A DNA stretch of 64,000 nucleotides. It comes from Botryllus schlosseri (Eukaryota). Below are positions 12,941 through 48,782 of the stretch, in pieces (position 1 is the stretch's first letter; the number at the start of each line of letters is the position of its first letter). The DNA lies in NCBI GenBank assembly GCA_051294905.1, contig CM119371.1:8868001-8932000 (forward strand), read 5' to 3'. Below the pieces are notes generated by a model. The model saw only the letters and a program-made list of their open reading frames with translations. It was not told where the DNA came from and ran no database searches. A program made the translations under genes and the position numbers.

Positions 12941-13122
12941 CATTTAATTTCCTGAAATTCGTGTTATTTACTATTTTTTATTCTTATCCTAAAAGATCTC
13001 CGTATGCTCTCTTCATCAGTTCCATATAGTACCATCATGCAGTATGCACCGTAGTAAATGCCGTCATTCTTATCAGATCATGTCGGTCAATGATTGACAT
13101 AATCACATACCCCATTTAAATT
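12941..13122 (-). repeat. LTR-like terminal direct repeat, 3' copy (segment A 12941-13091 followed by segment B)
   Basis: 12941-13091 matches 48630-48780 with 3 mismatches; contains AATAAA on the minus (coding) strand; lies ~240 bp beyond the env2 stop. Confidence 0.8.
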
Positions 13123-13357
13123 AACTTTCATGACCCGAGGGCAGTTCATTCAACTCTTATTTAGGCCTATTATAATTCATCAAGCACCTTAGGGCAGTTC
13201 AAATCCATAACTTTGATGTCATTTCGACATGTTGTGAGATACGATTTCGAAAGGTTGTTATTATAATCACGCAATATAATCGTGACTCGGAAGCGTATAA
13301 CAAAATAGTTTTTTTTTTTTATTAATTTTTTTGTTCTGTTTTATTAGTACCGTTTTA

Positions 13358-16300
13358 CTATGATACCATAACGCGTCCGCCCAATAGATTATCAGTTTCT
13401 TGTTCTACGACCTCCTTCTCTTGTAACACAGGTCTGGTATGCAACTTTCGCATGCTAATTCCGTGGTGGATGTTTCTATTGACAATTTTCCGCCTTGTAC
13501 TTGATTCTAACTTATTTCTTCTGCGATAATACTTCTTGCTAATGTATATCAAGGCTGCCACGGAAAAAAATAAGATAATGACGACCATCATTAATCTTTT
13601 ACTTTGGCCTTTTATTGGCCCTTGAATATTCCGTACATGAATGCCAGTCATTATGAAAGGTACTAGTTTTACCGAGTAGTTTTCTTCCATCTTTAATAAT
13701 TCATGTAGTTTTTCTGTTAAATTGAGCCTTATCAAAGTGTCTGTGGCATTCTTCGAATCGTACCCCCATATCTCAAGCGTGGAGACAGGGGCTTTAGCAG
13801 TTATCATTTGTGAATCGTTCCCTCCAAGAGTTGGGGGTAGACTTTTAATTGTATTCGGAATGCGAAGGGCCTTAGGGGTTTGTACCATGACCTCCTCTAT
13901 ACGGGAATCATTGAACCGTGTAATTACACGTGTCGTTGAAGGGTCGTCGATATTTTCACTGGACTCATTTATGGTGGTTTTGGTTCTATTGACCAACGGA
14001 TTCGGTTCCCTCGGTTCCGTCATATGCAATTCTCCACTCCTTCCGGCTTCTGGCAATGCTCTGGACATCGATGTACTTCCAGTGCCTTGCAAACCCCGAA
14101 TCACTTTCATCATTAGTATTGTGGCAGCGATACTTGGCGGTGTAGTTCCTGTTCTTTCGGTAGTAATCTCCGTCCCAGAAGAGGTCGTGCCATTTGGTAA
14201 AATTATCTTCGTCCCAATAGCAGCCGTGGTATTCGAGTGCATAGGTTTTATAATCATAACGGTCGGGTTACTCTCCTCCGTTGTACCCAAGGTCGGCCGA
14301 GTACTTAGAATTGTGGTTTCATAATCGTGGTCCCGAGATCGTGATGGATTCCTTATTACTTCAATTCTGTCTTCCAATGTCGAATTTGAGGTGTTTCTGG
14401 AGTAATAACTCAACATGGCTTGTAGAGGTACCTTTAGCGTGGAGGATATAACTGTTTCCGTTCCACTATTTATTAGGGATTCATCGCTATGTGATAATTC
14501 AGATTGGTTCTGTAGAGGGTGGCTTCTAATTGAATCCTTAGTTGTCGTAGAATTTGGGGTGGTCATAATTGTCGTAGAATTTGGGGTGGTCAGAATTGTC
14601 GTAGCGAATTCTGCATAGCTGGACATAGGACGTGTTGTTTGTTCCACCATTACCGTTTTCTCTCCTGAAGGGGTATTCTGGATCATCCTCCTGAGTTTTA
14701 AATTAGGTCTATTTGAAATTGTACTAATGTTCGCTGCATTCCCATACAGAGCGGGTCGTGTTGTTATAACTTCGGACCTCCATACGTCGGGAACAGGGAT
14801 CATGCTCCTTGAATCACTGTATTGTATGGGTTGTGTTGTTCTCACTCTTGAGGGAATAGTAGTACTATTATTCGTTATATTCCAGGGTTCTGTTGTTACC
14901 AAGAATAAATTGTTCCTTGATGACATCGAAAACTTTCCCTCCCCGTCTTTTTTCGAAAGGGTAGCAGTAACTGTTGTATAAGGAACGCCAGTCGATTTTT
15001 CCACAGAAGTGAGTATTGTCATGTTCGTCAAACGGGTTGTATGCGATGTGTTGTTATGATCTACCGGTCCTTCAGTAGGGGGAGAGGTGGGTTTGTTAGT
15101 AAATGGGTCCGGGTTTGTAGCAGAAATGTCCCCAGGCAGGGTGGGCGTCACATTAAAAAGGCGAACAGTAGTGTTAGACATGGACAATGTCCTATCCTTT
15201 CTGGTATCCACTTCAAACACGTTGGGTTGATAATCGGTCGTTATTCTAGCCTTTTCCGGAGGTGGTGAGGTTTGGATTATTTTACCAAGTGCCTCCGTTA
15301 TAGTTGTGTTGATGACGGTCAAATGCTCGTCCGTTGATGACCACAGAGGATTCGCCCTGCTCGTTTCATTTCCCACCACCAAAATCGTACTGGCGTGATC
15401 TGAAAAATTGCTAACACCTTGTTTAGTAAGTCTTCCCCTAATTATTGTCATAAGAGGAGGAGCTTGTGTGCTTTCCGACACATTTCCCGCCGTCGAGGCT
15501 GGGACTTCTATAGTGGTCAACACGTTATTGGGAGCTGCTGTAGTCGTGTTCACCAAACGTAAGCGAGGCCTTTTTTTGTAGGCGTATGGTGTGTAAATAA
15601 GGCTTCCATTCAGAAAGTATGCCTTGTAACACACGTCCGGAGCGAATAGGTTAGTTTGTCGGGATTTTGCTTCCAATAAACTCTGGGCAGTGGCCATTTG
15701 GCTGAACGCTCTGTTCAGCCTTACAGCGTCAGATCCTGAAATACCCTTCTGCTGTCGGTTAATTTTGTTGAGAATCATATTTTTTGCCCTTCTTGGTATT
15801 ATTTCGCGGCTCATAACCATCTTTAACCGAGACCTTATAATAGCTATTGGTCTGGTTAAATTTCTGATTATGTCGACAGCTCGTTTGCGGGCTTGTAGCC
15901 AATTCTGACGAAACCACCCTTCAAGACTTTGTCCATTCGCACCTGACATCGTGAGAAGGAATGCCTGTTCTCTTTTTCTTGCTAATCCAGGAATATGCGT
16001 AAGCGTAGTTCCGACAAATTCTCCTCCGTAGGTGTTGACAAAAATGGGATGATTCAATGATGGATCATACGTCACTAGATTCCCCATAATGAGTTTGGCA
16101 GCCACCCCGCTGAAAGGATTGGTGCACTCTGTTCGGTTTGCGACACGGCCCTGACAGTTCGGATCTAAAGCAGTCATCGACGGGGAGGTTATTTTTATAG
16201 GCATACTCCCTTTCTGACGTCTCTTCGGTCCATCCCGTAATCTGTTGTTGGCATAATATCCGCCCTCCAATGAAATGTTAGCACTCGCCTTAACCCAAAA

Positions 16301-17221
16301 TATTCGATTTGACATCACCTTATCGAAAACTCCTGTGGGCCATAAGTTTTCAGACGCTGCCAGTTGTTCACCATTGTTTATGGGGTTGTCCGTGTTTTCT
16401 CTCGTAGTAAATGTGTCAATAGTAATATCTTCTTCCTGAACAATAAGTCCAAAATCTACAATACCAATCACTGGGTTTTCACCAGTAAATCGACAAGTAT
16501 AACACGTCGGAGATTCTCCTTGAGTAGTTGAGCAGGCATGGAAGTTTCGCATTGTAATGATTAGTCTAAAAGAGACTGGATTCCAATCCCTCGTGCAGTC
16601 AGCTATTACCCCGCGATAGTCTTTGAGCAAACTTATCACGAGAAATTTATAAACAGTCATGATAGGTGTGTACTTATTCCCAGGATTTCCGCGAGGGAGG
16701 GTGAATTGGTTTTCAGCCCATTGCCAAACGAAGCGTGCATCATACTGTTCCGACCGATGGAATCGAATTCGCCTCCCCAGGTAGGAATAATTCAAGGGTG
16801 GTTTTATGTAGAGAATTCTCCTAAGACACGAACAAGTCTGTTCTAACTTCAAAGGATCATCCCAGTATTGACCCTGTGATCCCCTCGGGAGAAGGTTATT
16901 CCGCATTGTTTGTCCAATAGTTTGTATCTTGCCAAACTGGGCATCATATCCGACAATTTCTCCATCAGATTTATAGCGATGTATTTGTTCGGGGTTCGTG
17001 TTAGCCAATGTTATTTCTAAATTGAATAACTCTTGAAGTAGTGCCCTCGAGCTGTTAAACAAGCTCTCGTCATAACGGGTCCATGTCGAAGTGTTCAAGC
17101 TTTCAATAGGTAATATCTTCATGTCAATAAAAGGGACTCGGCCAGTAACATGAGAACGTCCTGACCACGCGGCCGACAGTAAAAGGACCATAACAACGAT
17201 GATGTGATCCAACTTCTTCAT
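13358..17221 (-). CDS. Envelope-like type I glycoprotein 2 (1287 aa): Env1-paralogous N-terminal domain, long S/T/N-rich mucin-like stalk, TM and basic tail
   Basis: Signal peptide MKKLDHIIVVMVLLLSAAWSG; Cys and motif colinearity with the 785-aa ORF; many N-x-S/T sites; TM LMMVVIILFFSVAALIYI followed by KKYYRRR. Confidence 0.8.
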   Translation of the reverse strand: MKKLDHIIVVMVLLLSAAWSGRSHVTGRVPFIDMKILPIESLNTSTWTRYDESLFNSSRALLQELFNLEITLANTNPEQIHRYKSDGEIVGYDAQFGKIQTIGQTMRNNLLPRGSQGQYWDDPLKLEQTCSCLRRILYIKPPLNYSYLGRRIRFHRSEQYDARFVWQWAENQFTLPRGNPGNKYTPIMTVYKFLVISLLKDYRGVIADCTRDWNPVSFRLIITMRNFHACSTTQGESPTCYTCRFTGENPVIGIVDFGLIVQEEDITIDTFTTRENTDNPINNGEQLAASENLWPTGVFDKVMSNRIFWVKASANISLEGGYYANNRLRDGPKRRQKGSMPIKITSPSMTALDPNCQGRVANRTECTNPFSGVAAKLIMGNLVTYDPSLNHPIFVNTYGGEFVGTTLTHIPGLARKREQAFLLTMSGANGQSLEGWFRQNWLQARKRAVDIIRNLTRPIAIIRSRLKMVMSREIIPRRAKNMILNKINRQQKGISGSDAVRLNRAFSQMATAQSLLEAKSRQTNLFAPDVCYKAYFLNGSLIYTPYAYKKRPRLRLVNTTTAAPNNVLTTIEVPASTAGNVSESTQAPPLMTIIRGRLTKQGVSNFSDHASTILVVGNETSRANPLWSSTDEHLTVINTTITEALGKIIQTSPPPEKARITTDYQPNVFEVDTRKDRTLSMSNTTVRLFNVTPTLPGDISATNPDPFTNKPTSPPTEGPVDHNNTSHTTRLTNMTILTSVEKSTGVPYTTVTATLSKKDGEGKFSMSSRNNLFLVTTEPWNITNNSTTIPSRVRTTQPIQYSDSRSMIPVPDVWRSEVITTRPALYGNAANISTISNRPNLKLRRMIQNTPSGEKTVMVEQTTRPMSSYAEFATTILTTPNSTTIMTTPNSTTTKDSIRSHPLQNQSELSHSDESLINSGTETVISSTLKVPLQAMLSYYSRNTSNSTLEDRIEVIRNPSRSRDHDYETTILSTRPTLGTTEESNPTVMIIKPMHSNTTAAIGTKIILPNGTTSSGTEITTERTGTTPPSIAATILMMKVIRGLQGTGSTSMSRALPEAGRSGELHMTEPREPNPLVNRTKTTINESSENIDDPSTTRVITRFNDSRIEEVMVQTPKALRIPNTIKSLPPTLGGNDSQMITAKAPVSTLEIWGYDSKNATDTLIRLNLTEKLHELLKMEENYSVKLVPFIMTGIHVRNIQGPIKGQSKRLMMVVIILFFSVAALIYISKKYYRRRNKLESSTRRKIVNRNIHHGISMRKLHTRPVLQEKEVVEQETDNLLGGRVMVS

Positions 17222-17343
17222 CGTGGTTCTTGTTATAAGTTTATAAATCTTAGTCGTATTCCTATACCTAAATGCAGTTGTTTATGTCATTAGTCTGTCT
17301 TTAGTCACTACTTGTCTTTTCTTATAAAGAATCTTTGTATTAC

Positions 17344-19701
17344 CTATCGCCGAATAGTCAGGGGTGCCATATAAGCCGTATATGTCGTCAACTCATTTCG
17401 GTTATTTCGACCTTGTATCTTATCATGTGTTCTCCTTTTGTTAGGGAAGACGACCGGGTAGAGTTTAATCATACAAATAAGTATTCCGATCACAACCACT
17501 ACAATTATAATCGGTGTGAGTATTCCCGTTAGACTCCCAAATATCGCACCCAAGCCAGAACCAAATAACCCGCTCACTCCGTCAATACCCTGGGAGAGTA
17601 TTTCCCCAGCTCCTTCCGCTACGCTCCGAATAATCGTTCCTGTGCCATTAGCGACGGTCTTAACGGCATCCCCGAAGTCATCAAAGAATTCTTCCCCTAT
17701 TACGCGATTCAAGTGGATAAAACTGATATTATCATACTCCATATTTGAAGTATTTACAAACACGCCGCTGTCCACATCTTCTTGCCAGCGTTGCAATTCA
17801 ATTTCAGCTTGGTAGTCGATGCTCTGTATTTCTCTTCGCGTGTTTTGTAATTCCAACGCCTGATTTTCGGAAACATTTGCATAGTCGCCTTTCAGCTCAA
17901 TCATTTTCTCCGCAATTTCGCGTAGGCTTAAAATCCCTGACTTAATTCGTACAGCGTACGCCTTGTTTCTATCAAATATAGGTTTCGCTGTTAGATTTTG
18001 TAACTCCTGCATAACCAATTGATTAATGCTCAACTCAGCCAATGTCATTTCTTGTACGGTTTGGATCGTGGATAGATAACTATCCACTTGTGCTAATATC
18101 ATGTTTCGATTGGTCCATATCATACTGGTGATAGTTTGGAGCCTTGCCTCGGTAGCTGCTTCCCTTCGCAGATTTGTCAGGATCAACTCGTTCAATTTCT
18201 GAGCCCGGGCAACCCCTATAAGGGAAAGATCGTTTAATCCGTCAGCTACCGTCTTCAAATCATTTTCTATTTGTGTAAATCGGGCGTTCAGTTGCGCAGT
18301 TAAGTCGTCCATATTTTTGTTGATCATGTGCTGTAGATTTGAAGTTACGGCCAGAGTTAAAATTGTCGAGAATGCTAATACGAATAATGAGAAAAACATT
18401 CTTTTTCGCCTTCCCGTCCCTCCTGGAAGTGTAGAATTCCCGTCCTCTAAACCTGTTTTGTGACCTCCCAGTACCACGAGAGGTTTTCCGGGGTATCTTC
18501 TTCGATTGGCCTGGGAATCGTAGATAATGTCGTCCCAATAGGACAGTTTCATGTGCAAGTCCCCAACAGGATATTCACAGGTTGCTTTATTTTCCCGTAT
18601 TCGTCTCACACACCGCTGATCGTCCTTCAATAACGAAGGGTATTGGCGGTATATCGGTAATATTCCCGAAATCTTGATAGGCTTCCTTCCATCCATATAA
18701 TCTAAGCCGTATTTATTCGGATAAGTGGGTCGAATCCAAATTATATTTTCCGGTAAAGTTGGTTTGTCACCCAATATAGCATTTCTCCACACAGGTGCTG
18801 ACGGGTGGTAATTGTGTACTCCAGGCACATATTCCATTTCAATGTCTAGCGACGTCTTTAAATTTCTAGTTGGGTCCTCTTCCTGTATAAGAATTTTGCT
18901 AGGATGGGGTTGATAAGCCACAACCAAACCGCGAAAAGTACAGGTCGTACATCGTAATATCTGGAGTAGACGAACACAATCCACCAGATCTGTAGAACTA
19001 TCGTTGTAGATATTTCTTTGTAACATCATTGCCTCGGTCCTTACCGTATAGGTGACACAATTTATTCTAATACTAGAATATGTGGCAAACATTTTCAACG
19101 CTTTTAATTTATACTTCATAATGGCTATCTGGAATAGGCCGCGAGGATTCCAGCCTCTAATCGTTTCGTCCGTATCGTTCCACCTCCATACCAACCGGTA
19201 ATTATTTCCAGTAGGTCTCACATATACATTTTCCGATTCCAGAGCTTTCAAGTTCAGATCAGGCGTAATATATGCCTTTGTTCGTCGACACAAGCAAGTC
19301 TTTTCGAACGCATTTATATCTTCCCAATAATGCCCAGTCGGATACATGTATTCTTGAAACGTGATCTTCTCGGCCTTCACATAACCAAACGTGGATGAGA
19401 AAAACAATCCAGGGTTACTAAAGTTATAAGTTGAATTCCTTATGTCCCAGCACGACGCTAGAGAAATGTGTTCCCAAGGCGATGATTTCAATTCGGTCCA
19501 ATCTGCGGGAAATTTCTTAGGCAGCCTTCCAAACTGAGCCTGGACTATCGTTCCAGCTCTGTCGTCATAGTATGGTATTGTGCTTGCGGTGGTAGTTATA
19601 TTACTTGCAGATATTGTCGATCCCGTCGTCCTCGGCAATAGCACACTAAGTGTATGAAGCAAGCCACACAAGTAATAATTAATAGTAGAAACGCTGACCA
19701 T
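17344..19701 (-). CDS. env: Envelope fusion glycoprotein-like protein 1 (785 aa)
   Basis: Signal peptide; furin site RRKR (18400-18411) immediately followed by hydrophobic MFFSLFVLAFSTILTLAV; heptad-repeat region; Gly-rich amphipathic membrane-proximal segment; TM IIIVVVVIGILICMI; Kozak context GCACCATGG. Confidence 0.85.
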   Translation of the reverse strand: MVSVSTINYYLCGLLHTLSVLLPRTTGSTISASNITTTASTIPYYDDRAGTIVQAQFGRLPKKFPADWTELKSSPWEHISLASCWDIRNSTYNFSNPGLFFSSTFGYVKAEKITFQEYMYPTGHYWEDINAFEKTCLCRRTKAYITPDLNLKALESENVYVRPTGNNYRLVWRWNDTDETIRGWNPRGLFQIAIMKYKLKALKMFATYSSIRINCVTYTVRTEAMMLQRNIYNDSSTDLVDCVRLLQILRCTTCTFRGLVVAYQPHPSKILIQEEDPTRNLKTSLDIEMEYVPGVHNYHPSAPVWRNAILGDKPTLPENIIWIRPTYPNKYGLDYMDGRKPIKISGILPIYRQYPSLLKDDQRCVRRIRENKATCEYPVGDLHMKLSYWDDIIYDSQANRRRYPGKPLVVLGGHKTGLEDGNSTLPGGTGRRKRMFFSLFVLAFSTILTLAVTSNLQHMINKNMDDLTAQLNARFTQIENDLKTVADGLNDLSLIGVARAQKLNELILTNLRREAATEARLQTITSMIWTNRNMILAQVDSYLSTIQTVQEMTLAELSINQLVMQELQNLTAKPIFDRNKAYAVRIKSGILSLREIAEKMIELKGDYANVSENQALELQNTRREIQSIDYQAEIELQRWQEDVDSGVFVNTSNMEYDNISFIHLNRVIGEEFFDDFGDAVKTVANGTGTIIRSVAEGAGEILSQGIDGVSGLFGSGLGAIFGSLTGILTPIIIVVVVIGILICMIKLYPVVFPNKRRTHDKIQGRNNRNELTTYTAYMAPLTIRR

Positions 19702-19857
19702 GGTGCCGGCACAGGTACGTCGGGAAATTTCATTAATTATAATTTTTTCAAATAGCTGTAAAGTTATCTGTCTGTAAAAGCATAAATAGGGTTAGGCGAA
19801 TTGCGTTCTGTGTTCGAAGCCGTAATATTGTCTCAGAGAGGAGGGATAGAGTATGTT

Positions 19858-20862
19858 TTAGGCGACAGTGGTACCACATACATTGAAACGAGGGTCCTCC
19901 CTTATGGACCTTAACAATGACTCAAATATGTCGTTTCTGTCATGCTGACGTTTGTATAACCACTCATCTACGTACTCTTGTAACAAGTGTCTGGCCAGTC
20001 CACGCGAGCGCCTCATGTGGTGCTTCAGACTAGACCAAGCCGCTTCCTGATCGTTCGTATGCGTCCCATCAGGCGCTCGAAACATAGCGCTATGGTCGAC
20101 TGATCTGTGTTTATAATCTTGCCCCCACTCCTCTATGCCATTATAAGAGGGGTAACAATCCGTTAATATGGTAGATCCCCTGGCTATATTATTTACAAGT
20201 ATACGCTTCATTACCGCTGCCGTCCTGTCAGATGTTATTTCTGCAAACATTTCTCCTGTTGCTCGGTCAAGTCCACCCACAACCCAAACTGCCTTCCGGG
20301 CTGAAGGATCATTGGTCGTGTCGCGACGTCGCTTCGCCAGATGCGACTCGTCCACAACTATGATACTTTGGTAGCCGCCTAGTTTTCGTTTATGTCGTCG
20401 TAAATCCGCAGCACACACTCGTCTCAAGCATCCAGACCAAAACACAATAGATCGGAGGCTAATTTCTGATTCGTGGGAGATGTGATTTTGCGGGCTGTCG
20501 TGGGCCCAGAAATATGTCATTATAAGTAATTCAGGTAGCCCAACCTTGCTATTACTAAATATAGATCCTTTCCGAATAGAGGAGGTTGTCCTGCACTCAT
20601 TTTGTTGGCAGCGATATCTCCATCCATCATCGCTGGCTCCTGTTCGCTCTTCTACCATTGTGGATCTGCATTTTCGACAGGTCATTTGCCGAGACAGTAA
20701 TCCTTGGCTTCTCATGAACATAATGCAATCGCGGGTATTCAGTAAGACTCCAGATTGGGCCAGACGTAGTACATTATGGGGTACTTCTTGAGCGTCTGTA
20801 AGGGTAAAAATAAAATAGGTACAGATATATTCTTGGTTGGTTTGCACCTCTTGTGTATTCAT
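19858..20862 (-). CDS. IS1595/ISXO2-like (Merlin-type) DDE transposase, copy 1 (334 aa)
   Basis: N-terminal CxxC..DGWRYRC..C Zn ribbon, SIRKGSIFS, VVDESH, VWVVGGLDR, STILTDCYPSY, VDHS..F..PDGTHTNDQEAAWS, YVDEWLYK. Confidence 0.9.
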   Translation of the reverse strand: MNTQEVQTNQEYICTYFIFTLTDAQEVPHNVLRLAQSGVLLNTRDCIMFMRSQGLLSRQMTCRKCRSTMVEERTGASDDGWRYRCQQNECRTTSSIRKGSIFSNSKVGLPELLIMTYFWAHDSPQNHISHESEISLRSIVFWSGCLRRVCAADLRRHKRKLGGYQSIIVVDESHLAKRRRDTTNDPSARKAVWVVGGLDRATGEMFAEITSDRTAAVMKRILVNNIARGSTILTDCYPSYNGIEEWGQDYKHRSVDHSAMFRAPDGTHTNDQEAAWSSLKHHMRRSRGLARHLLQEYVDEWLYKRQHDRNDIFESLLRSIREDPRFNVCGTTVA

Positions 20863-20906
20863 GTCTCTTTCTTGTAACTTAAGATAACACTGTGAAATTT
20901 TACTGA

Positions 20907-23900
20907 TTATTGTTTTTTGTCCGCAAACTGTATTACTGCGGAAGGGATGGGTCCTCTACACAAAATTACATCTGGGTTGGGTGACTGCCACATAATCATA
21001 CCCAATTCCCTGATTTTGCTGGCGTCAATTTGTAAAGCCACCTTTCGTCCCCGAGATTTCCCACTTCGGGTTAGGCTAAAGTGAATGTATTTCCGGGGCA
21101 TTCTTTCAAGCTCAGTCTGCATAATCCGTTGAGCGCCATTCCGCGTAGTCATGTGGTACAGCTTGTCGTTACCAGTATATTCCTCATAAGCGGGAGGCTC
21201 ACCCACGGTATGTCCGTGTGCAGCCGCGAGCCCCTCATCTTGAAGAACAGCCCTGGAATTGTTTTGCATGATTGACCTTAGGAAGTGACTTTGGAACTCT
21301 TTCCCCAGTTTTCTCCTTAGGATTTCTTGCAGATGTCCCCAGGGATGAAATCCACCATGGCTGTGGTCACATACCTCGTGCCTACAGTGCCGCATTAAAA
21401 GTCTCTGTATGAATTCATGTCTGGCAGAGTCCAATTCGTTTGGTGCGTCCGCACTCTTCGTCGTAGGTAAAGTGGTCCATACACAAGGGTCGTCTTCCCC
21501 TGCGGCCATTTCCATCCAATAAGAACGAGAAAGCCCATCGGATGTGAATACCTGTAGCGTACTTAAATGAATCACTTTATCTATTTGGAATCCTGATAGA
21601 TGGTTGAGCCATCGCTGGATTAGTGGTTTTGGGCTCGGATTCGCAGCTTTTTCTGTCATCCTTTTCAATAGTCCGAATACCCCTGTATTGTCTGTGATAA
21701 TGGTAAATGGTATTGCGCGCAACATAGATTGCCATTTTTCCACCGAATCTTTTAGAGCTTTGAGCTCTTTTGTACACGGATCATATGCCTTTGCCGTTTG
21801 GGTAGTCCATTTTTGGCTATAAAAAGCAATCGGGTATATCTTCGTAAAGGGCGGTTTTTCTCCTTCTTCTGTCTGAAATATTACGGAACCGAATCCTACA
21901 TCAGAAGCATCGGTTTCGATATACAGCGGGAGTTCTGGGTCCAGATGATATAGTACCCTTGCGTCGTCCAGTAAGGCTTGGGCCACCTTATAATCATGCA
22001 ACAACTCATCGTTCCATAGTAAGGGCGTTACTCTTCCTTGTGTGGCCGGTACTTTCCCCGTTAACGCGTCGAACTTTGCTAGCTTCAGGCTCAATTCAGG
22101 TATGTGTTCTGAGATGTATCTCAATGCCCCGATCCAACCCCGTAGCTCATAAATGTTATGAGGTGGCGCAAGTTCTTTCAGGGCTCTAACTCGTTCGGGT
22201 TGGACCTCAATTTCTTTGCCTGTTAAGGTTGCGCCCAGCAGATTCACTCGCCGCTTGCCAATGAAACACTTATTGATGCTCACTGTCAATTTCATCTTAG
22301 CCAATTGTTCAAACACCATTCTGAGCAGCACCAGGTGATCCTCAATGGTCTTTGTGCTCAGGAAGATGTCATCAATGTAGGCCTCCATAGGCGTCACAGT
22401 GGACTCATCAGTCCTCCCACATTCTCGCATGAAGCGTTGATAATTCTCAGTGATGGGTTTAACCACACATTCCTGCATATTTGAAGTCCAAAGGGCTACT
22501 GCGGTCCGAAGACCCATTGGCATCTTTCGCCAGCGTATATGCCTGCCCTTTACGGCAATGCCTACGTATTGTTTTGATCTTTCCGTCATTTCCATGTGAA
22601 AATAGGCCTTCTTCAAATCCAATAGGGATAGTACCTCACGACCTTGAGCAAGCTGCTTCACGTCAGGTACTAATGGAGGGGGTACCTCTATGGATTTGAT
22701 GGCTGCATTAAGGGGTTGGAGATTCTGTACAACCCTCCATGCCTGTTTCCACCCGCCTTCTTGCTTCTGTCTTTCGTTCATTTTTTGAGGTACTACAAAT
22801 ATGGCCAGTTTCCATTCAGCAAATCCTTGTTCAATGACTTCGAGATCTAAAAAATTATCCACAGCCTCTTTTAAGGCTTTTGCCTGTTCTTCGCCCTTTA
22901 GATTATAAGGCCCTGACACAAAAGGTTTGGTTGAAGGGTCCTTCAATTCGATGTCACATTTGTATTTCATGGCTTGTGGGGCTTTGAGGTGTCCTCGTAG
23001 ATCTTCAAGTTCCGTAGCGTAAGGTTGATATACCTTCCTCCATTCTGCCTCAGGTACGATAGTGTTATCTGGGCTGGTAAGATCCGGTGGCTTATAGGGT
23101 GATTTCGCCAGTTCTACAGCTTGTTTACACAATCTTTCTAATTCGTCTCTAACGTCTGTCTTGGTCCCTTTACACAGTTCATACGTAGTTATCGGACCGC
23201 GAATTGGCCTGGTTGGGCCTTGACGTATTTCCGGTACCGATGGAGAGGGGGCGAGGTCTCCTTTGGTCAGTGGGGCTTCCACACTCGACTTGTTCTGCCT
23301 CTGAAATAGGCGCGTGCCCGCACCTATTTTCACGCCGACGACTCCCTTTTCCCTTGTCGCCGGGGGCCCTTTTTCTGGTAGGGTTTGCATATTTCCTCCA
23401 GACTCTTCGTCATCCACCCTGTTCTCTTTCCCAGAGGAGATGGCGACAGCTGCATTTGAAATAGTTTTCTCGGTTGGTGGCACGACGAATGCGACCATCG
23501 GGTCGTGGACAATATGTCGGCCGTTTTTATCAGGATCCTTCCATACGCCCGTGTCCTGATTATTGCTAGCGGGAATTCTTCGCTCAGCATGATTGGATTT
23601 GGGGGGGACACTACCCCCCATATTGAGATTAGCGTGACCGGACGTCCTCCCTTGTGCGCTAAATCTCTCCGAGAAAGAGGGATTGCCGAAATCCCGAATA
23701 ACGTCAGCGGGGCTTCCACACTCGACGTTGTAGAATGTCGCAGCTTCCATCGCTCCGTCACCAGAAGCAACGTTGCAAGTGCTACTTCTGTTTCCGGTTC
23801 CTTCATCGCCAATTAACGCGGCAAACGTCAATTCATTATTAACTGCAGTAGGGTCTTTAAATTCCATTTCTATAGATGGAAGTTGCTGAACTTGGTCAAT

Positions 23901-24323
23901 CCACTTCAACCCTATAATATTTAATGGTACTCTATCACCAGTCGCAAATGGAACTGGTAAGCCATCTATCATGATTATTATCAGGTAATCAACACAGGAC
24001 AATCCACCTATGCCGCGCAATTTCATTTCGAAAGGTTGCCTTTTGGCCCAACTAAGGGGGTATTTATCCTTGGCTACCTCCTTCAAAATCAGATTTGGGA
24101 CACTTCCCGTGTCGGCTAAGAATTTAGTTCCTGTTTTTTTGTCCATTAGGTACAATAAACGACCACCGAACAATTCAGTAAAGTCAGCCTGTGGCGTATT
24201 GTCCGGTATGTCGAGAAAAGTAAATAGGGGTAAAGAAGAATTATGTACAGTTTTAACGTGGTAAGGTAACACTGATTCGGGCAACTGATTTACCGGATCC
24301 ATCAGTGCCCCCAGTCGTTTTTT
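20907..24323 (-). CDS. pol: Pol polyprotein (aspartic protease, spacer, RT, RNase H, Tpt1/KptA-like domain); probably made as Gag-Pol by -1 frameshift; no integrase
   Basis: LADTGS protease (24105-24113); RT motifs WRVVQNLQPLN, LDLKKAYFHM, MPMGL, YIDD (22368-22379), LLG; Ty3/gypsy-type RNase H ETDASDVG..PIAFYS..KELKAL..IITDN. The ORF-track start at 24362 is TTG. Confidence 0.92.
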   Translation of the reverse strand, partial: KKRLGALMDPVNQLPESVLPYHVKTVHNSSLPLFTFLDIPDNTPQADFTELFGGRLLYLMDKKTGTKFLADTGSVPNLILKEVAKDKYPLSWAKRQPFEMKLRGIGGLSCVDYLIIIMIDGLPVPFATGDRVPLNIIGLKWIDQVQQLPSIEMEFKDPTAVNNELTFAALIGDEGTGNRSSTCNVASGDGAMEAATFYNVECGSPADVIRDFGNPSFSERFSAQGRTSGHANLNMGGSVPPKSNHAERRIPASNNQDTGVWKDPDKNGRHIVHDPMVAFVVPPTEKTISNAAVAISSGKENRVDDEESGGNMQTLPEKGPPATREKGVVGVKIGAGTRLFQRQNKSSVEAPLTKGDLAPSPSVPEIRQGPTRPIRGPITTYELCKGTKTDVRDELERLCKQAVELAKSPYKPPDLTSPDNTIVPEAEWRKVYQPYATELEDLRGHLKAPQAMKYKCDIELKDPSTKPFVSGPYNLKGEEQAKALKEAVDNFLDLEVIEQGFAEWKLAIFVVPQKMNERQKQEGGWKQAWRVVQNLQPLNAAIKSIEVPPPLVPDVKQLAQGREVLSLLDLKKAYFHMEMTERSKQYVGIAVKGRHIRWRKMPMGLRTAVALWTSNMQECVVKPITENYQRFMRECGRTDESTVTPMEAYIDDIFLSTKTIEDHLVLLRMVFEQLAKMKLTVSINKCFIGKRRVNLLGATLTGKEIEVQPERVRALKELAPPHNIYELRGWIGALRYISEHIPELSLKLAKFDALTGKVPATQGRVTPLLWNDELLHDYKVAQALLDDARVLYHLDPELPLYIETDASDVGFGSVIFQTEEGEKPPFTKIYPIAFYSQKWTTQTAKAYDPCTKELKALKDSVEKWQSMLRAIPFTIITDNTGVFGLLKRMTEKAANPSPKPLIQRWLNHLSGFQIDKVIHLSTLQVFTSDGLSRSYWMEMAAGEDDPCVWTTLPTTKSADAPNELDSARHEFIQRLLMRHCRHEVCDHSHGGFHPWGHLQEILRRKLGKEFQSHFLRSIMQNNSRAVLQDEGLAAAHGHTVGEPPAYEEYTGNDKLYHMTTRNGAQRIMQTELERMPRKYIHFSLTRSGKSRGRKVALQIDASKIRELGMIMWQSPNPDVILCRGPIPSAVIQFADKKQ
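20910..21425 (-). other. Tpt1/KptA RNA 2'-phosphotransferase-like domain at Pol C-terminus
   Basis: Colinear family motifs: CRH (LRH), GGF (dGw), IMQNNSR, AAHGHT (RAnqGHS), LYHMT (lyHGT), ERMPRKYIHFS (kpmkRqhVHLS), ALQIDA, QSPNPDVILC..PIP. Confidence 0.8.
24262..24323 (-). promoter_or_regulatory. -1 programmed ribosomal frameshift signal (A AAA AAC plus stem-loop/pseudoknot)
   Basis: In the gag frame GCA AAA AAC (24317-24323); pol is in the -1 frame; downstream GGGCACTGAT pairs with ATCAGTTGCCC, and loop GGTAA could pair with a later TTACC. Confidence 0.8.
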
Positions 24324-27295
24324 GCTAATCTCAACCCCTGGTCCAATTCCTCGTCGGTCCAATATGGATTAATACGGGATTGTGGGGGATAATATGGCTG
24401 GGTCCATGCTACCGTATCGGCATTGTGAGTGGGTCCCCGTGGTCCCCATTGATCTCTATCGCGCCAATGGGTCCTGTCTCTATTCTTAGGTCTTTCGTTA
24501 TAATACGTGTCACACAGGGCTGTTCTCTCAACAAATGAAGGGGACCCTTGTGAGGCTAAGTATCGATCCAAATCAGGTATCGAGAGTAGTCGATTTTCAG
24601 TTAGAAAAGGACGCCAATTCCTTTCTACAAATTCCTTTATGCGAGGTGGTACAGGTCGTCGTCGCTTTTGGATTACCCATCCCTCGGTATCGTCTTTAGT
24701 TAGGACCTCCTCATTCAGCCATAATATGAATTTGGCTACGCAATTTCGAGATTGGTGCCCTGGTGCCTTGCAATAATAACATACAGACAATGTTTGCCCC
24801 TCTGACGGGTTCAAATATAAGCCTAGAGGTGCAAAAATATTGGGGTTACCAAGGAAATTATACCTCTCACCTTGACTGTTGGAAATCTGGCTCGCCTCGT
24901 GGCTACTCGATGGAGTTGCTTGAGAATAGTCCCTTCCGAAGCCCGAATCCTGCGTCTGCGAAAATCGCGGTTGTCCTCGGTTTAATGTTCTCCTTTCCTG
25001 GTTCGGTCGCGAGGTCGGAGAGTTCTGAGAGTAGTGACCGTTACCTCTATCTCCCGCTGGACGTCTCTGCGAAGGCGAGATCCCCTGTGGTCTATTCGCT
25101 ACCCCACCCTTCGAAGTGGGTCTTTCCCGACTGGGATTTCCGTGGGCTATTACCGTCGTGGGGAATCGGTTCGTCTTTGCGGCCCTGCCTGGGTTTATCC
25201 TTGTCACAGGCTGGTACGTTGTCCGGGCGCGTCTTCCGACGTCCATAGGTTGTCGACTCTGAGGTGACACGTTGTTGAGCATAGATTGTGAAGAGGGAGA
25301 GGGCGAGTTGATAATGGGGGGCGTGGGGGTACGTATCGGCTGGGAATTGTCTATTCTCCCATTTCCAGTGGGCTGGGTTGGGTAGCTAGGCATCATGTGT
25401 CCGGCAGGTTGTACATTGTAAATATGTACGGGTGGCAGAGAAGGAGCACTTACAGCGTGTGCCTTTTTGTTGGGAGCCCTCGTCTCGCTAGGGAACCTCC
25501 CTTCTTCCTGATCGTCTAGGAACTCGGAATTCCAGAACATCTGTAACTCCTCAGCCACTTGTTGCCACGTCCCCTCTTCCCAACCGCGGATCATCATTCT
25601 CAACGCCTGAGGCAGTTGACGTCGTAGATGTCTGAACAAACGCAGCCCGTCGGGGTTTTTCTTAATGTAGCTTCCCATATTTATTTCGAGTTGCTTCAGC
25701 ACACTATTCAACAACGGCAGTGGTTCTTCATTCCAGGAGTAATTACTCCGAAATTCGTTAATGATCTTTTCGTTATTCACTAAACCTTGAGGGTTGGAAA
25801 GGTTGAGGGACCTCATAACGGAAAACCAACTCGGTTTGCCCGAGTTGGTGTTGAAAAAGTTTCCCAACTGTCTGGCCTGCTTTATACGTCCTGCCTGTCT
25901 CAGCTTTTTCTGCATGGCGTTTGATAAGATTATATCTTCGTTCGTATCCCCCTCTCCATGATCGATGCGAGCCATCGTATTAGCCATCCATTTAACAAGG
26001 GGCATGTCGTCCGGGTCCATCATGAGTTGCATCATTTCCTTTTCGGTTTGTAATCTGATAGGCCGTTCCCCAGCGTGGAACTCACGTGCTTGACTCGGGG
26101 TCCCCAATTCCCCTGGTGGATTGCAAGTATAACCTTGTTGCTGTTCTACAATTCCTTCCTCACTGTAATCAGGAGTGGACTCAAACCGTGGGGAACCAGC
26201 GGTGAATCGAGACGGGAAGTAAATCTGCCTAAAATTGCTAGGATCGCGGAGAGCGTCTTGTGGTTTGTGGCCATTATTGTTAAGGATAGAAGTCTTGGTT
26301 TCCCTATCTTCTAGGGGACCTCTTCCAATCCTTTCAAAAGTAACGTGCCTGGTTTCGTCTGGCTCGCTCCTCGCTCGTCTTTTGACGGAGATTTTATCGC
26401 TTGTTCGTTGACCGTCCTGTCCACGTTGGTCGTCCTGCCTACCCCGGTCTCCTCCTATTCGTACCAATCCGGCCGCCCCATGATACTGTTTCGTGGAGTC
26501 GTGTTCATGTTGATCTTCCACGCTCGGTCTAGGACGGATCGGCGTGTACATGTCAGTGGAGGGACGTCCTGATGATACGGTCGGAGGGCCGTCCGGCCCA
26601 AATTTATCCAAGGATTTCGAGCGTCTCATCCCTTTGGCACTAAGCAGTCCCTGACCGGGACTGGCTGCCAGTCTAAGAGCGGGACTGGCTGGTTGTAGGT
26701 TTCCGGTTTTTTGAATCGGTTGTTGCTGGGGTGATTTGTGTGTTGGACCTTCCGACTGAGTCTGGGGGGAGGCCGTATATACAGCTGTAATTGTATGGCA
26801 ATCAAGTCCTTTGCTCACATGAAATTTGGGCCTAAGGACGGCTCCCCCCCATGACGGGTTTGTTGGGTGGTGATATGCTGGTGGGGGTGAAGTGGGTATT
26901 ACTGTTAGCGCGTTAGATGGTCGAGAGGTCTCCCCGATTACCGACGCATGTTCCTTTCCGAGGTCGAATTCAGCCTTCAAAACTTCGTTTAGTACATCTG
27001 TGGAAACTTTACCACTGACCTTGGTGGTAGCGTCACATACTGCTTTCAAATCAGCCTTAGCCTGTTTTACCTCTTTCTTTATTTTGTCCAATTCTTTCAT
27101 AGTACCCGGCAGGACTGTTTTGACTTCCTTCAGCAGTTTGGTTTGGTCTGCGACACTTTGAGTGAGTCTTTTTTCCTGATCCTTTACATTTTCATGGCGT
27201 AATTGTGTGGCTCTGAACAGCTGAATTCCTTGTTCTAATTCCGCAGCTGTCTCCGTTGATCTTTTCTTTTTGAACAACTTCACCATTTTTTCCAT
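24302..27295 (-). CDS. gag: Gag-like polyprotein (997 aa)
   Basis: N-terminal coiled coil, PPAY motif, central helical domain, CCHC knuckle CYYCKAPGHQSRNC (24740-24781), position directly upstream of and overlapping pol. Confidence 0.85.
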   Translation of the reverse strand: MEKMVKLFKKKRSTETAAELEQGIQLFRATQLRHENVKDQEKRLTQSVADQTKLLKEVKTVLPGTMKELDKIKKEVKQAKADLKAVCDATTKVSGKVSTDVLNEVLKAEFDLGKEHASVIGETSRPSNALTVIPTSPPPAYHHPTNPSWGGAVLRPKFHVSKGLDCHTITAVYTASPQTQSEGPTHKSPQQQPIQKTGNLQPASPALRLAASPGQGLLSAKGMRRSKSLDKFGPDGPPTVSSGRPSTDMYTPIRPRPSVEDQHEHDSTKQYHGAAGLVRIGGDRGRQDDQRGQDGQRTSDKISVKRRARSEPDETRHVTFERIGRGPLEDRETKTSILNNNGHKPQDALRDPSNFRQIYFPSRFTAGSPRFESTPDYSEEGIVEQQQGYTCNPPGELGTPSQAREFHAGERPIRLQTEKEMMQLMMDPDDMPLVKWMANTMARIDHGEGDTNEDIILSNAMQKKLRQAGRIKQARQLGNFFNTNSGKPSWFSVMRSLNLSNPQGLVNNEKIINEFRSNYSWNEEPLPLLNSVLKQLEINMGSYIKKNPDGLRLFRHLRRQLPQALRMMIRGWEEGTWQQVAEELQMFWNSEFLDDQEEGRFPSETRAPNKKAHAVSAPSLPPVHIYNVQPAGHMMPSYPTQPTGNGRIDNSQPIRTPTPPIINSPSPSSQSMLNNVSPQSRQPMDVGRRARTTYQPVTRINPGRAAKTNRFPTTVIAHGNPSRERPTSKGGVANRPQGISPSQRRPAGDRGNGHYSQNSPTSRPNQERRTLNRGQPRFSQTQDSGFGRDYSQATPSSSHEASQISNSQGERYNFLGNPNIFAPLGLYLNPSEGQTLSVCYYCKAPGHQSRNCVAKFILWLNEEVLTKDDTEGWVIQKRRRPVPPRIKEFVERNWRPFLTENRLLSIPDLDRYLASQGSPSFVERTALCDTYYNERPKNRDRTHWRDRDQWGPRGPTHNADTVAWTQPYYPPQSRINPYWTDEELDQGLRLAKNDWGH

Positions 27296-27301
27296 AATTA
27301 T

Positions 27302-27532
27302 TTAACTAGTTTCGTTATATGGAAAATTTCTAACAGGAAATAGTGCCTCACTTGTTGATTCCGATATATTTACCGAGTTGGGTAGACCAAGAGTGGGGGC
27401 AGTAGAAGTAGGAGGGGCCACAGTAGGAATTAAGTGAAAATACAAGGAATCCAAAGTGACCAGTAGTGTTATGAGTGAAGCGACGACGAAGATGAGAAAG
27501 GCTCCGCCGAAACAACACGTTTTGAACCGCAT
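27302..27532 (-). CDS. Small single-pass membrane protein (~76 aa from ATG) abutting gag
   Basis: Hydrophobic run AFLIFVVASLITLLVTL; stop codon 6 nt before the gag ATG. Confidence 0.45.
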   Translation of the reverse strand: MRFKTCCFGGAFLIFVVASLITLLVTLDSLYFHLIPTVAPPTSTAPTLGLPNSVNISESTSEALFPVRNFPYNETS

Positions 27533-38023: not shown

Positions 38024-38542
38024 CTAATACGGTACTTTCAAAGCCATATATTGGCAATCTGCTTCCTTTAGTGATAACGAATGAGTTTCCGCATGCGCAT
38101 AAATAACCGATTCTGGGTAAATAACCCAAAGTATGAGATCACGCTCAGTTTTTTTGTCCCTCAATCTTTCCTCCCACTGAGGGAGCGCTATTTTCAAGGA
38201 CTTCACCCAGCAGATGCAGATCTCCGCAAATGCCAGTTTAAGGGGGGTCTCGGGATGGAGAGATCCCGTATAGATATCTTCCCATTCGTTTTCATCAAGA
38301 TGTTTGCCAGTCCAGTCACTATCGTCGCCATGATCGCAGGAGCAGAAGCCATGTCGTTTTTTCCAGTAGCGCATTCGCGGATTAGAGTGATCATCGAGTA
38401 TATCACAAATATATTCTGATAGCGAGGTTGTGGTCATAAGAAATTTCAAGGATTTCAGCCCTTGATCGAGAAATTCCTCTTCTCGGGGTTTTTCAACGAG
38501 GTGTTCGGTTTCAGGTTCTTCGCAACGCAATCCCAAGCACAT
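38024..38542 (-). CDS. Unknown-function protein, paralog B (172 aa)
   Basis: Full-length similarity to 31148-31660; ATG start; intact. Confidence 0.75.
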   Translation of the reverse strand: MCLGLRCEEPETEHLVEKPREEEFLDQGLKSLKFLMTTTSLSEYICDILDDHSNPRMRYWKKRHGFCSCDHGDDSDWTGKHLDENEWEDIYTGSLHPETPLKLAFAEICICWVKSLKIALPQWEERLRDKKTERDLILWVIYPESVIYAHAETHSLSLKEADCQYMALKVPY

Positions 38543-44082: not shown

Positions 44083-44598
44083 TAGGGCTGGGCACAATGA
44101 TTCGAGTACTCGAATCTGAATCGAGCAATAATTTTAATGATTCGAGTCGAGTAGCAAAATACGATTTTTTCGAGTACTGAAATTATACGCTCCTCGCCAC
44201 TGAAAGTTAATTTATCAACGATAATTATAGTTTCGATATCAATTTTCACTGTTGAAGCCTTGAAACCTATATTGGCCGCATCGTAGCATACGAAACATAT
44301 AGTACAAAGCTACGAACGTTACATGAAATAACATATTTCCGAAAGCATGATCATCCGCAACATTATCACCAAGTGCCATGAAATCGATATGGACGAAAAT
44401 ATGCCAAAGCAACCTTAAGGTGATGGATATCAGGAATTATATTCTTTGTGGTCGCATAAAAGGTACATATTTGAACTTTGACATAATACATTGTGTTGTG
44501 ACGTCATAATGAGTGATACTAGATTACTCGACTCGACTCGAAGCATTTTACGTGATTCAGAATCGAATCACCCAGGTACTCGATCTTGCCCAGCCCCA
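44083..44598. mobile_element. hAT-type MITE, same family as 10807-11321
   Basis: TIR TAGGGCTGGGCA / TGCCCAGCCCCA; TSD CTCGTAAT / CCCGTAAT. Confidence 0.8.
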
Positions 44599-47527: not shown

Positions 47528-47611
47528 GTCACCTAATTCGTATTCCTTTCTCTTCTATAAACCCATCCGGGTCACCTTATTCGTATTCCTTTCTCTTCTA
47601 TAAACCCATCC
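47528..47611. repeat. Two-copy ~43-bp tandem repeat
   Basis: GTCACCT(A/T)ATTCGTATTCCTTTCTCTTCTATAAACCCATCC twice. Confidence 0.8.
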
Positions 47612-48580
47612 CCGGATATTTCTGGAATCTCACATCACAGGAAAAAAATGGGGCAAAGCGTGCCACAAGGATTGCACATGAAGGAAAAAAATGCGGGCGG
47701 TGCAAAAACCTCGTTTAAGGTTCGCCGCGCACCTTTCTATTCCGCTTAGGCTACTTAAGTAATTTAGAACTTACGGCAGAAGGGCCAGCGTTAAGTCATA
47801 ATTCGCAATGTTTCTAAGCGTCGATTTTAAGAAGTCGGCACCTATACGTCAGTTTTAACTTGATAGCCAAAATAGCTGGACGGAAGTGACGGGTTTAGTC
47901 GGTGCCCAATCGCAAGTTCGAATATTAACGGGTTTTACAATAAAATTCTACTGACTCACATATTCAACCTATATGACTGTATTGATGGGAACTAGCTTAA
48001 TTTTATATATACCTTCAGTCATCCTACCTTAGTTACCTTAGTTTCCGTCATAAAGTACGCCCAACTTGTACGTGCAGAATAGAGTCGTCAGTCTGCTTCA
48101 CCGAAATTTCCGGTATTTTTTCCATTAGCTTTGACGCAAAGATCAATTGACATTATGGGTCGTTTTATATGTCGGATGCCAGCAATTTTGTCCGTAATTC
48201 GAATCGTTCCACCTAAATCATACAATCTTGCCGCGGGCGGCCCAACATATTGTTGCATCGTAGCGAACATGCTGCAACGCCAATTGGCCACCAGCTAAAA
48301 TCAAACCGAGATTGACTGTTCCATACCCACCCGAGTGTTGGAGGTTCACCCAGGCTCTTTCCAGTCATTCGAGCCGATCACACAACATTAGGAATCCACA
48401 CCGATTTAGCCACGGCCACGGATCCTTCATGTTGATATTTATTACTTATCCATTTTCTGTAATATTACAGCCAATTATAGATGGAGACATCGCCCGCATA
48501 TCGCGATGACACCCGCATCGCGATGTATACGGAATGGTTTTACTACTTTTATCTTGGCGATCTTGCGCACTTCCTGAAGG

Positions 48581-48782
48581 AATGATTGACATAATCACAT
48601 CGGTCAATGATTGACATAATCACATATCCCATTTAAATTCCTGAAATTCGTGTTATTTATTATTTTTTATTCTTATCCTAAAAGATCTCCGTGTGCTCTC
48701 TTCATCAGTTCCATATAGTACCATCATGCAGTATGCACCGTAGTAAATGCCGTCATTCTTATCAGATCATGTCGGTCAATCA
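48581..48782 (-). repeat. LTR-like terminal direct repeat, 5' copy (segment B twice, then segment A 48630-48780)
   Basis: Matches 12941-13091 (3 mismatches); preceded by AATGATTGACATAATCACAT twice; 48608-48782 reads TGATTGAC...GTCAATCA. Confidence 0.8.

Follow-up and report, generated by a model that had tools for sequence, protein, structure and literature searches.

What kind of element carries a retrovirus-like gag and pol, a DNA-transposon transposase and two envelope-like glycoprotein genes on one strand, and by what route does it enter a chromosome? This question is raised by a 64,000-nucleotide (nt) stretch of the tunicate Botryllus schlosseri (assembly GCA_051294905.1, contig CM119371.1, positions 8,868,001 to 8,932,000), hereafter the window, in which five long intact open reading frames (ORFs) lie head-to-tail on the minus strand between positions 13358 and 27295. 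We find that one RNA 5' end, consisting of the spliced leader (SL) of the host, and one poly(A) end bracket exactly these five genes and delimit a unit of 14,581 nt (13309-27889, from SL to A-tract). We also find that the reverse transcriptase (RT)-RNase H polyprotein of the unit, which is integrase-less and fused to a Tpt1 domain, is a conserved lineage in other genomes. In our reading, to which we give a probability of roughly 55%, the unit is one young and intact copy of a retrovirus-like element from an undescribed tunicate lineage, with an RNA-based life cycle and with the transposase acting as its integrase.

Gene content and layout

The features of the unit are given below in window coordinates, from the 5' end to the 3' end, with protein lengths in amino acids (aa).

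27865-27889, minus strand: spliced leader, an exact 25-nt host SL forming the 5' end of the unit
27854-27864, minus strand: 11-nt repeat, an exact copy of the SL 3' end, adjoining the SL
27302-27532, minus strand: small upstream ORF, 76 aa, within the leader region at the 5' end, with a single segment of strong hydrophobicity; putative gene
24302-27295, minus strand: gag, 997 aa, with zf-CCHC at residues 838-852 (Pfam)
20907-24302, minus strand: pol, 1131 aa, with an LADTGS protease motif, RT, RNase H and a Tpt1/KptA-like domain, without integrase
22224-22748, minus strand: RT domain, pol residues 519-693, with YIDD; RVT_1, E 8.3e-18
21588-22016, minus strand: RNase H domain, pol residues 763-905; RT_RNaseH_2 and RT_RNaseH, E about 3e-18
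20952-21353, minus strand: Tpt1/KptA-like domain (RNA 2'-phosphotransferase or ADP-ribosyltransferase fold) at the pol C-terminus; PTS_2-RNA, E 3.2e-9, 37.5 bits against a curated cut-off of 26
19858-20862, minus strand: transposase (tnp) ORF, 334 aa; DDE_Tnp_IS1595, E 1.9e-13; IS1595/ISXO2, Merlin superfamily
17344-19701, minus strand: env1, 785 aa, a class-I-like fusion glycoprotein by sequence features
13358-17221, minus strand: env2, 1287 aa, paralogous to the surface subunit of env1, with a membrane anchor and a mucin-like stalk
13309-13345, minus strand: 3' end signals, two AATAAA and an A7/A12 tract, 13-51 nt past the env2 stop

A first-pass annotation of the locus had described five intact minus-strand ORFs arranged head-to-tail, with gaps of about 44-156 bp and a gag/pol overlap, and had named the modules as gag, pol (protease-RT-RNase H-Tpt1), a Merlin-type (ISXO2) transposase and two envelopes. 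This gene inventory is borne out, with the ORFs taken from the ORF list and the domains of gag, pol and the transposase from Pfam. The spacers measure 44 nt (pol-tnp), 156 nt (tnp-env1) and 122 nt (env1-env2), while the stop codon of gag shares one base with the start codon of pol (TGATG). Pfam shows no rve in pol, and neither rve nor Integrase_H2C2 was matched by any of 11 ORFs of the window. No Pfam domain of a tyrosine recombinase, a GIY-YIG nuclease or an APE/REL endonuclease was found in any ORF of the unit, and env1 and env2 gave no Pfam match. The C-terminus of gag is homologous to the Styela clava protein XP_039272285, and the atlas leads for gag were zf-CCHC, Retrotrans_gag and PNMA clusters. 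Upstream of gag, the 5' leader region of the unit spans 560 nt and holds the small hydrophobic ORF of 76 codons.

Ends of the unit

At the 5' end, the leader GATTGGAGTATTTGGTTGTATTAAG (27889-27865, minus strand) is the sole match in the window, with 0 mismatches and 0 matches expected by chance, and it is identical to the 'Chordata 1' consensus leader (Table 1 of PMC3795323). When RNA reads of the same species were aligned to positions 12501-32500, depth reached 200-360 at 27855-27889 and was at most 0.2 over the ORFs. Two raw RNA runs, X9 and X13, of which about 6% and 13% were read, contain a library adaptor directly abutting 27889 in 7236 and 13331 reads, respectively, and from its sequence we take this to be a template-switch adaptor. 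The adaptor-bearing reads turn into unlike sequence a few bases past 27865 and are mostly cut at 27853-27858. An adaptor at 27889 combined with divergence just past 27865 is the behaviour of a spliced leader. The ORFs themselves drew almost no reads in the two raw runs, which we do not take as evidence for silence.

At the 3' end, the env2 stop is followed by two AATAAA signals and an A7...A12 tract, with the A-tract (13309-13320) ending at 13309. Because the DNA begins with an SL, it must descend from RNA, and the start at the leader together with the end at a poly(A) signal and A-tract indicates that the DNA is the reverse transcript of one processed, leader-bearing and polyadenylated RNA that contained all five genes. 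With its SL encoded in the genome, the unit records that the host leader was once attached to a full-length virus-like RNA of 14.6 kb and that this RNA was copied back into germline DNA.

Other origins of the leader were considered and rejected. A resident SL gene does not account for it: contigs from other samples that reach beyond the SL on its upstream side match the window for 3-4 nt and then depart from it, the sequence after the SL is not an SL-RNA gene as far as it is visible, and an Rfam scan of the window matched no family. Insertion of the unit into an existing SL-RNA gene, as in NeSL/SLACS-like elements, was rejected for this locus, as genuine SL-upstream contigs diverge 3-4 nt before the SL and the 3' flank continues no SL gene.

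The 11 nt after the SL (27854-27864) repeat its last 11 nt exactly, and about 1600 reads of one RNA run and several contigs from other samples match through this repeat and then diverge. The repeat may belong to an extended variant of the SL, represent the first bases of the SL-RNA intron or be left over from an earlier SL. We do not accept the repeat as proof of two rounds of trans-splicing and retroposition, as the implied acceptor is not AG and other transcripts match through part or all of it. Joints in run X9 among positions 27889, 13309 and 32229 were similarly rejected as circles or tandems; they join the leader, T-runs and a poly-G artefact on both strands and represent library concatemers.

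No direct repeat of the kind expected for long terminal repeats (LTRs) brackets the ORFs, and no terminal inverted repeats (TIRs) bracket the whole unit, in BLAST self-comparisons of the whole window (word size 11) and of its flanks around the unit (word size 7). Local alignment of the two flanks scored 23, against a mean of 21.0 for shuffled sequences (sd 2.8, maximum 35), and the 8-mers shared by the flanks were rejected as a target duplication because this alignment is not above shuffles. One motif of the initiator-Met type, used as a query for a primer-binding site, was unmatched in the window at up to 3 mismatches, and no tRNA genes were found in the window.

Good acceptor-like sites are present in the spacers on the upstream side of tnp and of env1 (TTTCACAG and TTTTACAG). 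In tunicate operons, genes are expressed as leader-trans-spliced monocistronic RNAs, and with acceptor-like sites in the spacers the downstream genes of the unit could be expressed in the same manner.

A 25-nt motif (19724-19748 and 20894-20918, 80% alike) lies 20-55 nt upstream of both the tnp and env1 start codons, and on sequence grounds it is possible that this motif is a shared processing or regulatory signal. A contig of run X5 with a depth of 87 joins 24043 to 24877 and skips 833 nt over the gag/pol junction; on the coding strand this join lacks GT..AG ends, and one of its sides covers only 22 nt. A second record of the same run, 13.4 kb in length, partly matches the stretch. These two records may represent a deleted copy and a near-full-length relative or transcript, respectively.

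The pol lineage

A word-based search with pol returned one close relative (45% identity, with a Tpt1 domain), the others being gypsy-like proteins at 19-25%. In an exhaustive profile search with pol, the best 150 of 44,062 matches include about 25 family clusters, after which come long chimeric gene models of ordinary gypsy elements. Pfam scans of ten family rows found rve in none and PTS_2-RNA in four, with PTS_2-RNA also present in P0001; integrase domains were found in 14 of the 15 nearest non-family proteins. With rve in 0/10 family rows, integrase loss is a trait of the lineage and not local decay.

The same division appears in the RT-RNase H core, where BLASTP scores are 283-552 bits (35-51% identity) within the family and do not exceed 164 bits (29% identity) in comparisons outside it. 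In a maximum-likelihood tree of 35 rows (7 family and 28 outgroup, leaving out rows longer than 2000 aa and three near-duplicates), the family forms one side of a branch with 100/99 support, apart from its integrase-bearing gypsy-like relatives. The row without a Tpt1 domain, P0028, from the related metagenome locus L002, is sister to the other 6 family rows, again with support of 100/99.

Fragments of the family are found on several large ENA contigs (100 kb to 2.6 Mb) and on metagenome contigs, and a Styela clava protein from NCBI is a family member that joins a window-like gag C-terminus to the protease. The LADTGS protease and YIDD motifs are kept in the pol relatives, and two related loci (L001 and L003) have a gag homologous to that of the window directly upstream of pol. 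Scans of IMG/VR with pol, transposase and env1 alignments returned no relatives. The best solved relative of the RT is that of cauliflower mosaic virus (CaMV; 8R0S, 74.9 bits), compared with 43-50 bits for foamy virus and Ty3.

The Tpt1/KptA-like domain

The C-terminal domain of pol aligns to the Thermococcus Tpt1 protein TkoTpt1 (9LD4) with E 8e-9, and it is kept in the family members P0001, P0022, P0023/P0171, P0026 and P0064. According to excerpts of PMC12678800, TkoTpt1 has a catalytic tetrad of Arg17, His18, Arg65 and Arg118, with extra roles for Lys63 and His98. The HMMER alignment places pol R1017, H1050 and R1070 on Arg65, His98 and Arg118 of TkoTpt1. A family-conserved RH pair (971-972) is present where Arg17-His18 would be expected, yet it is outside the stretch aligned by HMMER.

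The transposase and its linkage to the unit

The tnp product has an N-terminal Cys-rich region, and its residues D171, D235 and E273 are invariant in all six aligned sequences, including that of an ordinary IS1595-type protein. From these residues the transposase looks active. The first-pass annotation had pointed out that modules with TIRs of their own would indicate a chance nest of unrelated elements; no TIRs were found in the 44-nt and 156-nt spacers around the tnp ORF.

Three close homologues of the transposase were found, at 88%, 58% and 56% identity, and the nearest ordinary family member is 27% identical. The 88% homologue (P0173), without its N-terminus as if cut by a contig end, comes from a single Logan contig of 7067 nt, and the best env1 homologue (P0177, 56%) likewise comes from a single Logan contig of 7067 nt. 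Moreover, other samples of the same species contain pieces of the unit that are 96-99% identical. Contigs from two of these samples cover the tnp stop and the adjoining spacer (19795-20165, with 4 differences) and the env1-env2 junction (17219-17372). That the transposase is integral to the unit is supported.

L002 is a metagenome element and the only related locus that extends well beyond pol. Its env ORF of 1338 aa is a first membrane-anchored glycoprotein fused to an env1-like protein. No LTR was found in its 13.9 kb. A near-palindrome of 115 nt lies at L002 1709-1819, followed by the 18-nt string TGGTAGCAGAGGAAGGTT at 1846-1863, 65 nt before the first ORF. This string appears to resemble an initiator-tRNA (Met) primer-binding site.

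The glycoproteins

The env1 product has an N-terminal hydrophobic leader, 11 N-glycosylation sequons and a membrane anchor at residues 716-754. Between these, an RRKR site (431-434) is followed by a hydrophobic stretch (434-454) and a heptad-like stretch (458-506), a layout that appears class-I-like, as in class I fusion proteins. Homologues P0177 and P0178 are 54-56% identical to env1, and in its membrane-proximal half env1 also shows homology to the L002 env. Nothing meaningful was returned when PDB sequences were searched with env1, env2, gag and an env1 profile.

Residues 101-437 of env1 align with residues 92-422 of env2 over about 340 residues (BLASTP E 2e-17). The env2 product has 35 sequons, an S/T/P content of 33-42% over residues of about 600-1100 and a transmembrane segment at 1207-1230, and it is without a fusion peptide. 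We read env2 and env1 as a putative attachment and fusion pair. The presence of a fusion glycoprotein together with a mucin-like paralogue for attachment suggests past or present infectivity in the chordate sister group of vertebrates.

The flanking repeat and the surroundings

The first-pass annotation had also proposed an element of up to about 36 kb, bounded by a 151-bp direct repeat and including co-oriented ORFs upstream of gag. The direct repeat exists (12941-13104 and 48630-48792; 164 nt, 95.7% identical, E 2e-70), but it does not mark termini. The two copies are differently phased pieces of a unit of about 190 nt, the 3' end of one being the 5' flank of the other, and permuted pieces of a dispersed repeat are not the ends of an element. 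The repeat unit of about 190 nt holds a short palindrome (GTCAATGATTGAC), and other dispersed repeat pairs also cross the region in the window self-comparison. Judged by its sequence, the flanking repeat appears to be part of a dispersed repeat of the tandem or rolling-circle type. The SL and the A-tract sit 20.7 kb and 205 nt inside the repeats, and the distance between them gives a size of 14,581 nt instead of about 36 kb. The region from 32 to 48.8 kb has few ORFs and an opposite AT skew, which flips at about 32 kb, and tblastn found no relics of gag, pol or env there. The co-oriented upstream ORFs do exist, but they are not part of the unit.

28444-28944, 30024-30959 and 31148-31660, minus strand: upstream ORFs, outside the leader-to-poly(A) unit

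The ORF at 30024-30959 (minus strand) encodes a second intact IS1595-type transposase of 311 aa that is 41% identical to that of the unit and keeps the catalytic residues. It is located 2.1 kb upstream of the SL, between the two small co-oriented ORFs (28444-28944 and 31148-31660). No TIRs were found around it, and it has no leader or poly(A). Other samples hold pieces of this region that are 95-99% identical, one of them at higher depth. The transposase subfamily is so rare that the proximity of a second paralogue is odd; it could be a donor-type transposon, what is left of a related element, or an indication of target preference.

The small ORFs at 31148-31660 (minus strand, 170 aa) and 38024-38542 (minus strand, 172 aa) are 31% identical (E 6e-25) and belong to a repeated gene family, one of them with a sub-threshold PWP3A-B_C match. 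An inverted dispersed repeat pair of 520 nt (10809-11320 and 44084-44596) is 80% identical. Further out, the surroundings at 49870-51789 (plus strand), 52928-53815 (minus strand) and 61357-62925 (plus strand) hold a hAT transposase with a Spin-doc zinc finger, another RT fragment and a NACHT/NOD-like fragment. RT fragments of the long interspersed nuclear element (LINE) type are also nearby within the window.

Proposed life cycle and alternative explanations

We propose that the element would propagate via a full-length, leader-bearing and polyadenylated RNA whose 5' end is set by host trans-splicing, and that its own RT would copy this RNA. An SL would offer a promoter-independent definition of the 5' end without LTRs. 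The DDE transposase may stand in for the lost integrase, either linking the cDNA to chromosomal DNA or nicking the target, while the Tpt1-like domain may modify a nucleic-acid end through NAD-dependent removal of a 2'-phosphate or through ADP-ribosylation of a terminal phosphate. Trans-splicing of the leader at the acceptor-like sites in the spacers would possibly yield monocistronic mRNAs for the downstream ORFs, and attachment by env2 with fusion by env1 could allow for cell-to-cell or horizontal spread. More tentatively, it is possible that the unit stands for a new order of enveloped reverse-transcribing elements in tunicates that are without LTRs and integrase and that combine an SL-defined RNA, integration by a captured transposase and end processing or capping derived from Tpt1; we hold the probability of this broader proposal to be a good deal less than even.

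Several observations weigh against this life cycle. A copy that runs from an RNA 5' end to a poly(A) end is the signature of target-primed retroposition, which host LINEs could perform in trans, and the window yielded no recognisable primer-binding site. TIRs are normally required by a DDE transposase, and its insertions leave a duplication of 8-9 bp; neither feature was found here. The missing target duplication fits poorly with both a LINE and a Merlin-type mechanism. As to linkage of the transposase to the lineage, pol, transposase and env stand side by side in no copy besides the window, tblastn with the transposase matched 0 of 24 related loci, and L002 passes from pol to env in about 400 nt without a transposase and without a Tpt1 domain. 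The linkage of P0173 to P0177 is indirect and rests on the shared figure of 7067 nt, and among ten proteins from pol fragments none has a contig of the same size as the transposase contigs. The P0171 gene model runs from pol into a LINE-type endonuclease domain. For env1, the heptad signal does not exceed that of shuffled sequences (10 windows, where shuffles have a mean of 3.7 and reach up to 33), and the atlas leads to CoV S2, HA and paramyxovirus Fusion_gly (0.87-0.89) are sub-threshold. Finally, no family member has a lysine at the position equivalent to Lys63 of TkoTpt1, and the K63A mutation blocks the second reaction step in TkoTpt1 (excerpts of PMC12678800). With no equivalent of Lys63, the chemistry of the domain may differ from that of canonical Tpt1, and one could speculate that the reaction might halt at the ADP-ribosylated intermediate.

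The end structure of the unit could also be explained by a dead-end processed retrocopy, in which a LINE acting in trans copied a trans-spliced viral RNA and the true form of the virus is, for example, an episomal pararetrovirus-like circle or another provirus. In that case, the gene set would still be that of the virus, but the SL and poly(A) ends would be uninformative on its integration. A run from SL to poly(A) without LTR or TIR is what such a copy would look like, and LINE-type RT fragments are close by in the window. The string in L002 that appears similar to a tRNA-initiator-Met primer site, together with the lack of an LTR in that locus, is reminiscent of pararetroviruses, and the match of the RT to CaMV points in the same direction. 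However, no target-site duplication was found even though all ORFs are intact, and it is unusual for LINE-mediated retroposition to produce 14.6 kb without 5' truncation. The near-identical pieces in other individuals fit an established or multi-copy element, and they fit one fixed locus equally well. We regard a retrocopy of this kind as unlikely, although it has to be taken seriously. The unit could alternatively be a chance nest, in which an IS1595/Merlin transposon landed inside an ordinary Ty3/gypsy-like provirus with an env gene, from which integrase and LTRs had already disappeared. Transposable elements abound in the region (hAT, an RT fragment and repeats), a second transposase paralogue is found 2.1 kb upstream, and L002 has no transposase. 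We nevertheless consider a nest improbable: tnp is on the same strand as its neighbours, 44 nt past pol and 156 nt before env1, without TIRs or duplications around it, all five ORFs are intact, and a single SL and a single poly(A) enclose all genes. Moreover, integrase loss is lineage-wide, and the transposase subfamily is very rare, with one of its three close homologues sharing the 7067-nt figure with an env1 homologue.

Two further explanations have very little probability in our view. The element of about 36 kb, with the repeats of 151-154 nt as its boundaries, the upstream ORFs as its genes and later insertions of miniature inverted-repeat transposable elements (MITEs), draws on a repeat that is real and on co-oriented upstream ORFs that include the 41%-identical transposase paralogue and the two related small ORFs. 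It is contradicted by the permuted phase of the repeat copies, by the position of the SL and the A-tract well inside them and by the change of AT skew at about 32 kb, beyond which the region is ORF-poor and has no gag, pol or env relics. It would be just as surprising if the five genes were a host-domesticated gag/pol/env operon and not a mobile element. The intact ORFs and the operon-like spacing would suit such an operon in an organism with SL trans-splicing, but the DNA-encoded SL and the 3' A-tract mark a recent retro-copy. The homologues lie on many contigs of several genomes at 35-88% identity, often as fragments, which is typical of a mobile family.

Comparison with known systems

Retroelements are classified largely by how their DNA enters the chromosome, whether with an rve integrase, a tyrosine recombinase, a GIY-YIG nuclease or APE/REL nucleases. 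Ty3/gypsy elements and retroviruses carry an rve integrase in Pol, caulimoviruses have none, DIRS elements use a tyrosine recombinase and Penelope elements a GIY-YIG nuclease. If our reading is true, an integrase exchanged for the transposase of a DNA transposon would be a further route of entry and a direct exchange of modules between class I and class II elements. The fusion of Tpt1/KptA to RT may additionally point to ADP-ribosylation or 2'-phosphate chemistry in reverse transcription or in the escape from host sensing. In the literature we found no account of RT and RNase H fused to Tpt1, of a retroelement that contains an IS1595-type transposase, or of a tunicate virus-like element tagged with a leader, and the first-pass view of this module combination as undescribed stands.

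The env-carrying Ty3/gypsy elements (errantiviruses, Metaviridae) are alike in their gag-pol-env order, protease, RVT_1, RT_RNaseH and CCHC gag, as well as in a furin-cleaved fusion glycoprotein and in host phylum, going by excerpts of a survey that includes tunicates (PMC13524379). In the same excerpts, the surveyed elements have integrase domains and putative LTRs, with rve, LTRs and a tRNA primer site belonging to the survey definition (PMC13524379). The unit differs in having no integrase and no LTR, and it adds the Tpt1-like domain, the DDE transposase ORF and a second glycoprotein; its pol is placed in a clade separate from the 28 integrase-bearing relatives. Caulimoviridae share a protease-RT-RNase H without integrase, and their CaMV RT is the best solved match in the PDB comparison. 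They differ in their plant hosts, the lack of an envelope, the movement protein, the absence of transposase and Tpt1, and integration that is accidental.

Processed retrocopies, including the SL-tagged retrogenes of dinoflagellates, are similar in that they start with the SL of the source RNA and end in poly(A) (excerpts of PMC5585692 and PMC12014239). The cargo of the unit is a five-gene virus-like genome with its own RT, and it has no target duplication and no APE/REL domain. Merlin/IS1595 transposons resemble the tnp product in their DDE_Tnp_IS1595 domain, intact D-D-E and N-terminal Cys-rich region. These transposons typically have TIRs and an 8-9-bp duplication, whereas tnp has neither and is an ORF between pol and env.

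A precedent for a virus-like genome that relies on the DDE transposase of a DNA transposon for chromosomal integration is Teratorn (piggyBac and herpesvirus), which excerpts of PMC10175614 describe as a DNA virus/transposon of about 180 kb with TIRs, in contrast to the reverse-transcribing unit of 14.6 kb without TIRs. Troyka, Lokiretroviruses and Odin are comparable as recently recognised deep lineages of virus-like retroelements in animals (PMC12440569, in excerpt). Troyka is an LTR retrotransposon with 3-bp duplications and CG..CG termini, and the excerpted text, with which we compare by description only, makes no mention of Tpt1, a DDE transposase ORF or an absence of LTRs (PMC12440569). 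Taken together, the unit functions like an enveloped element of retroviral type, lacks the defining features of LTR elements, of Merlin transposons and of DIRS, Penelope-like and LINE elements, and shares only its end structure with processed retrocopies. The chance that it represents a new class is substantial.

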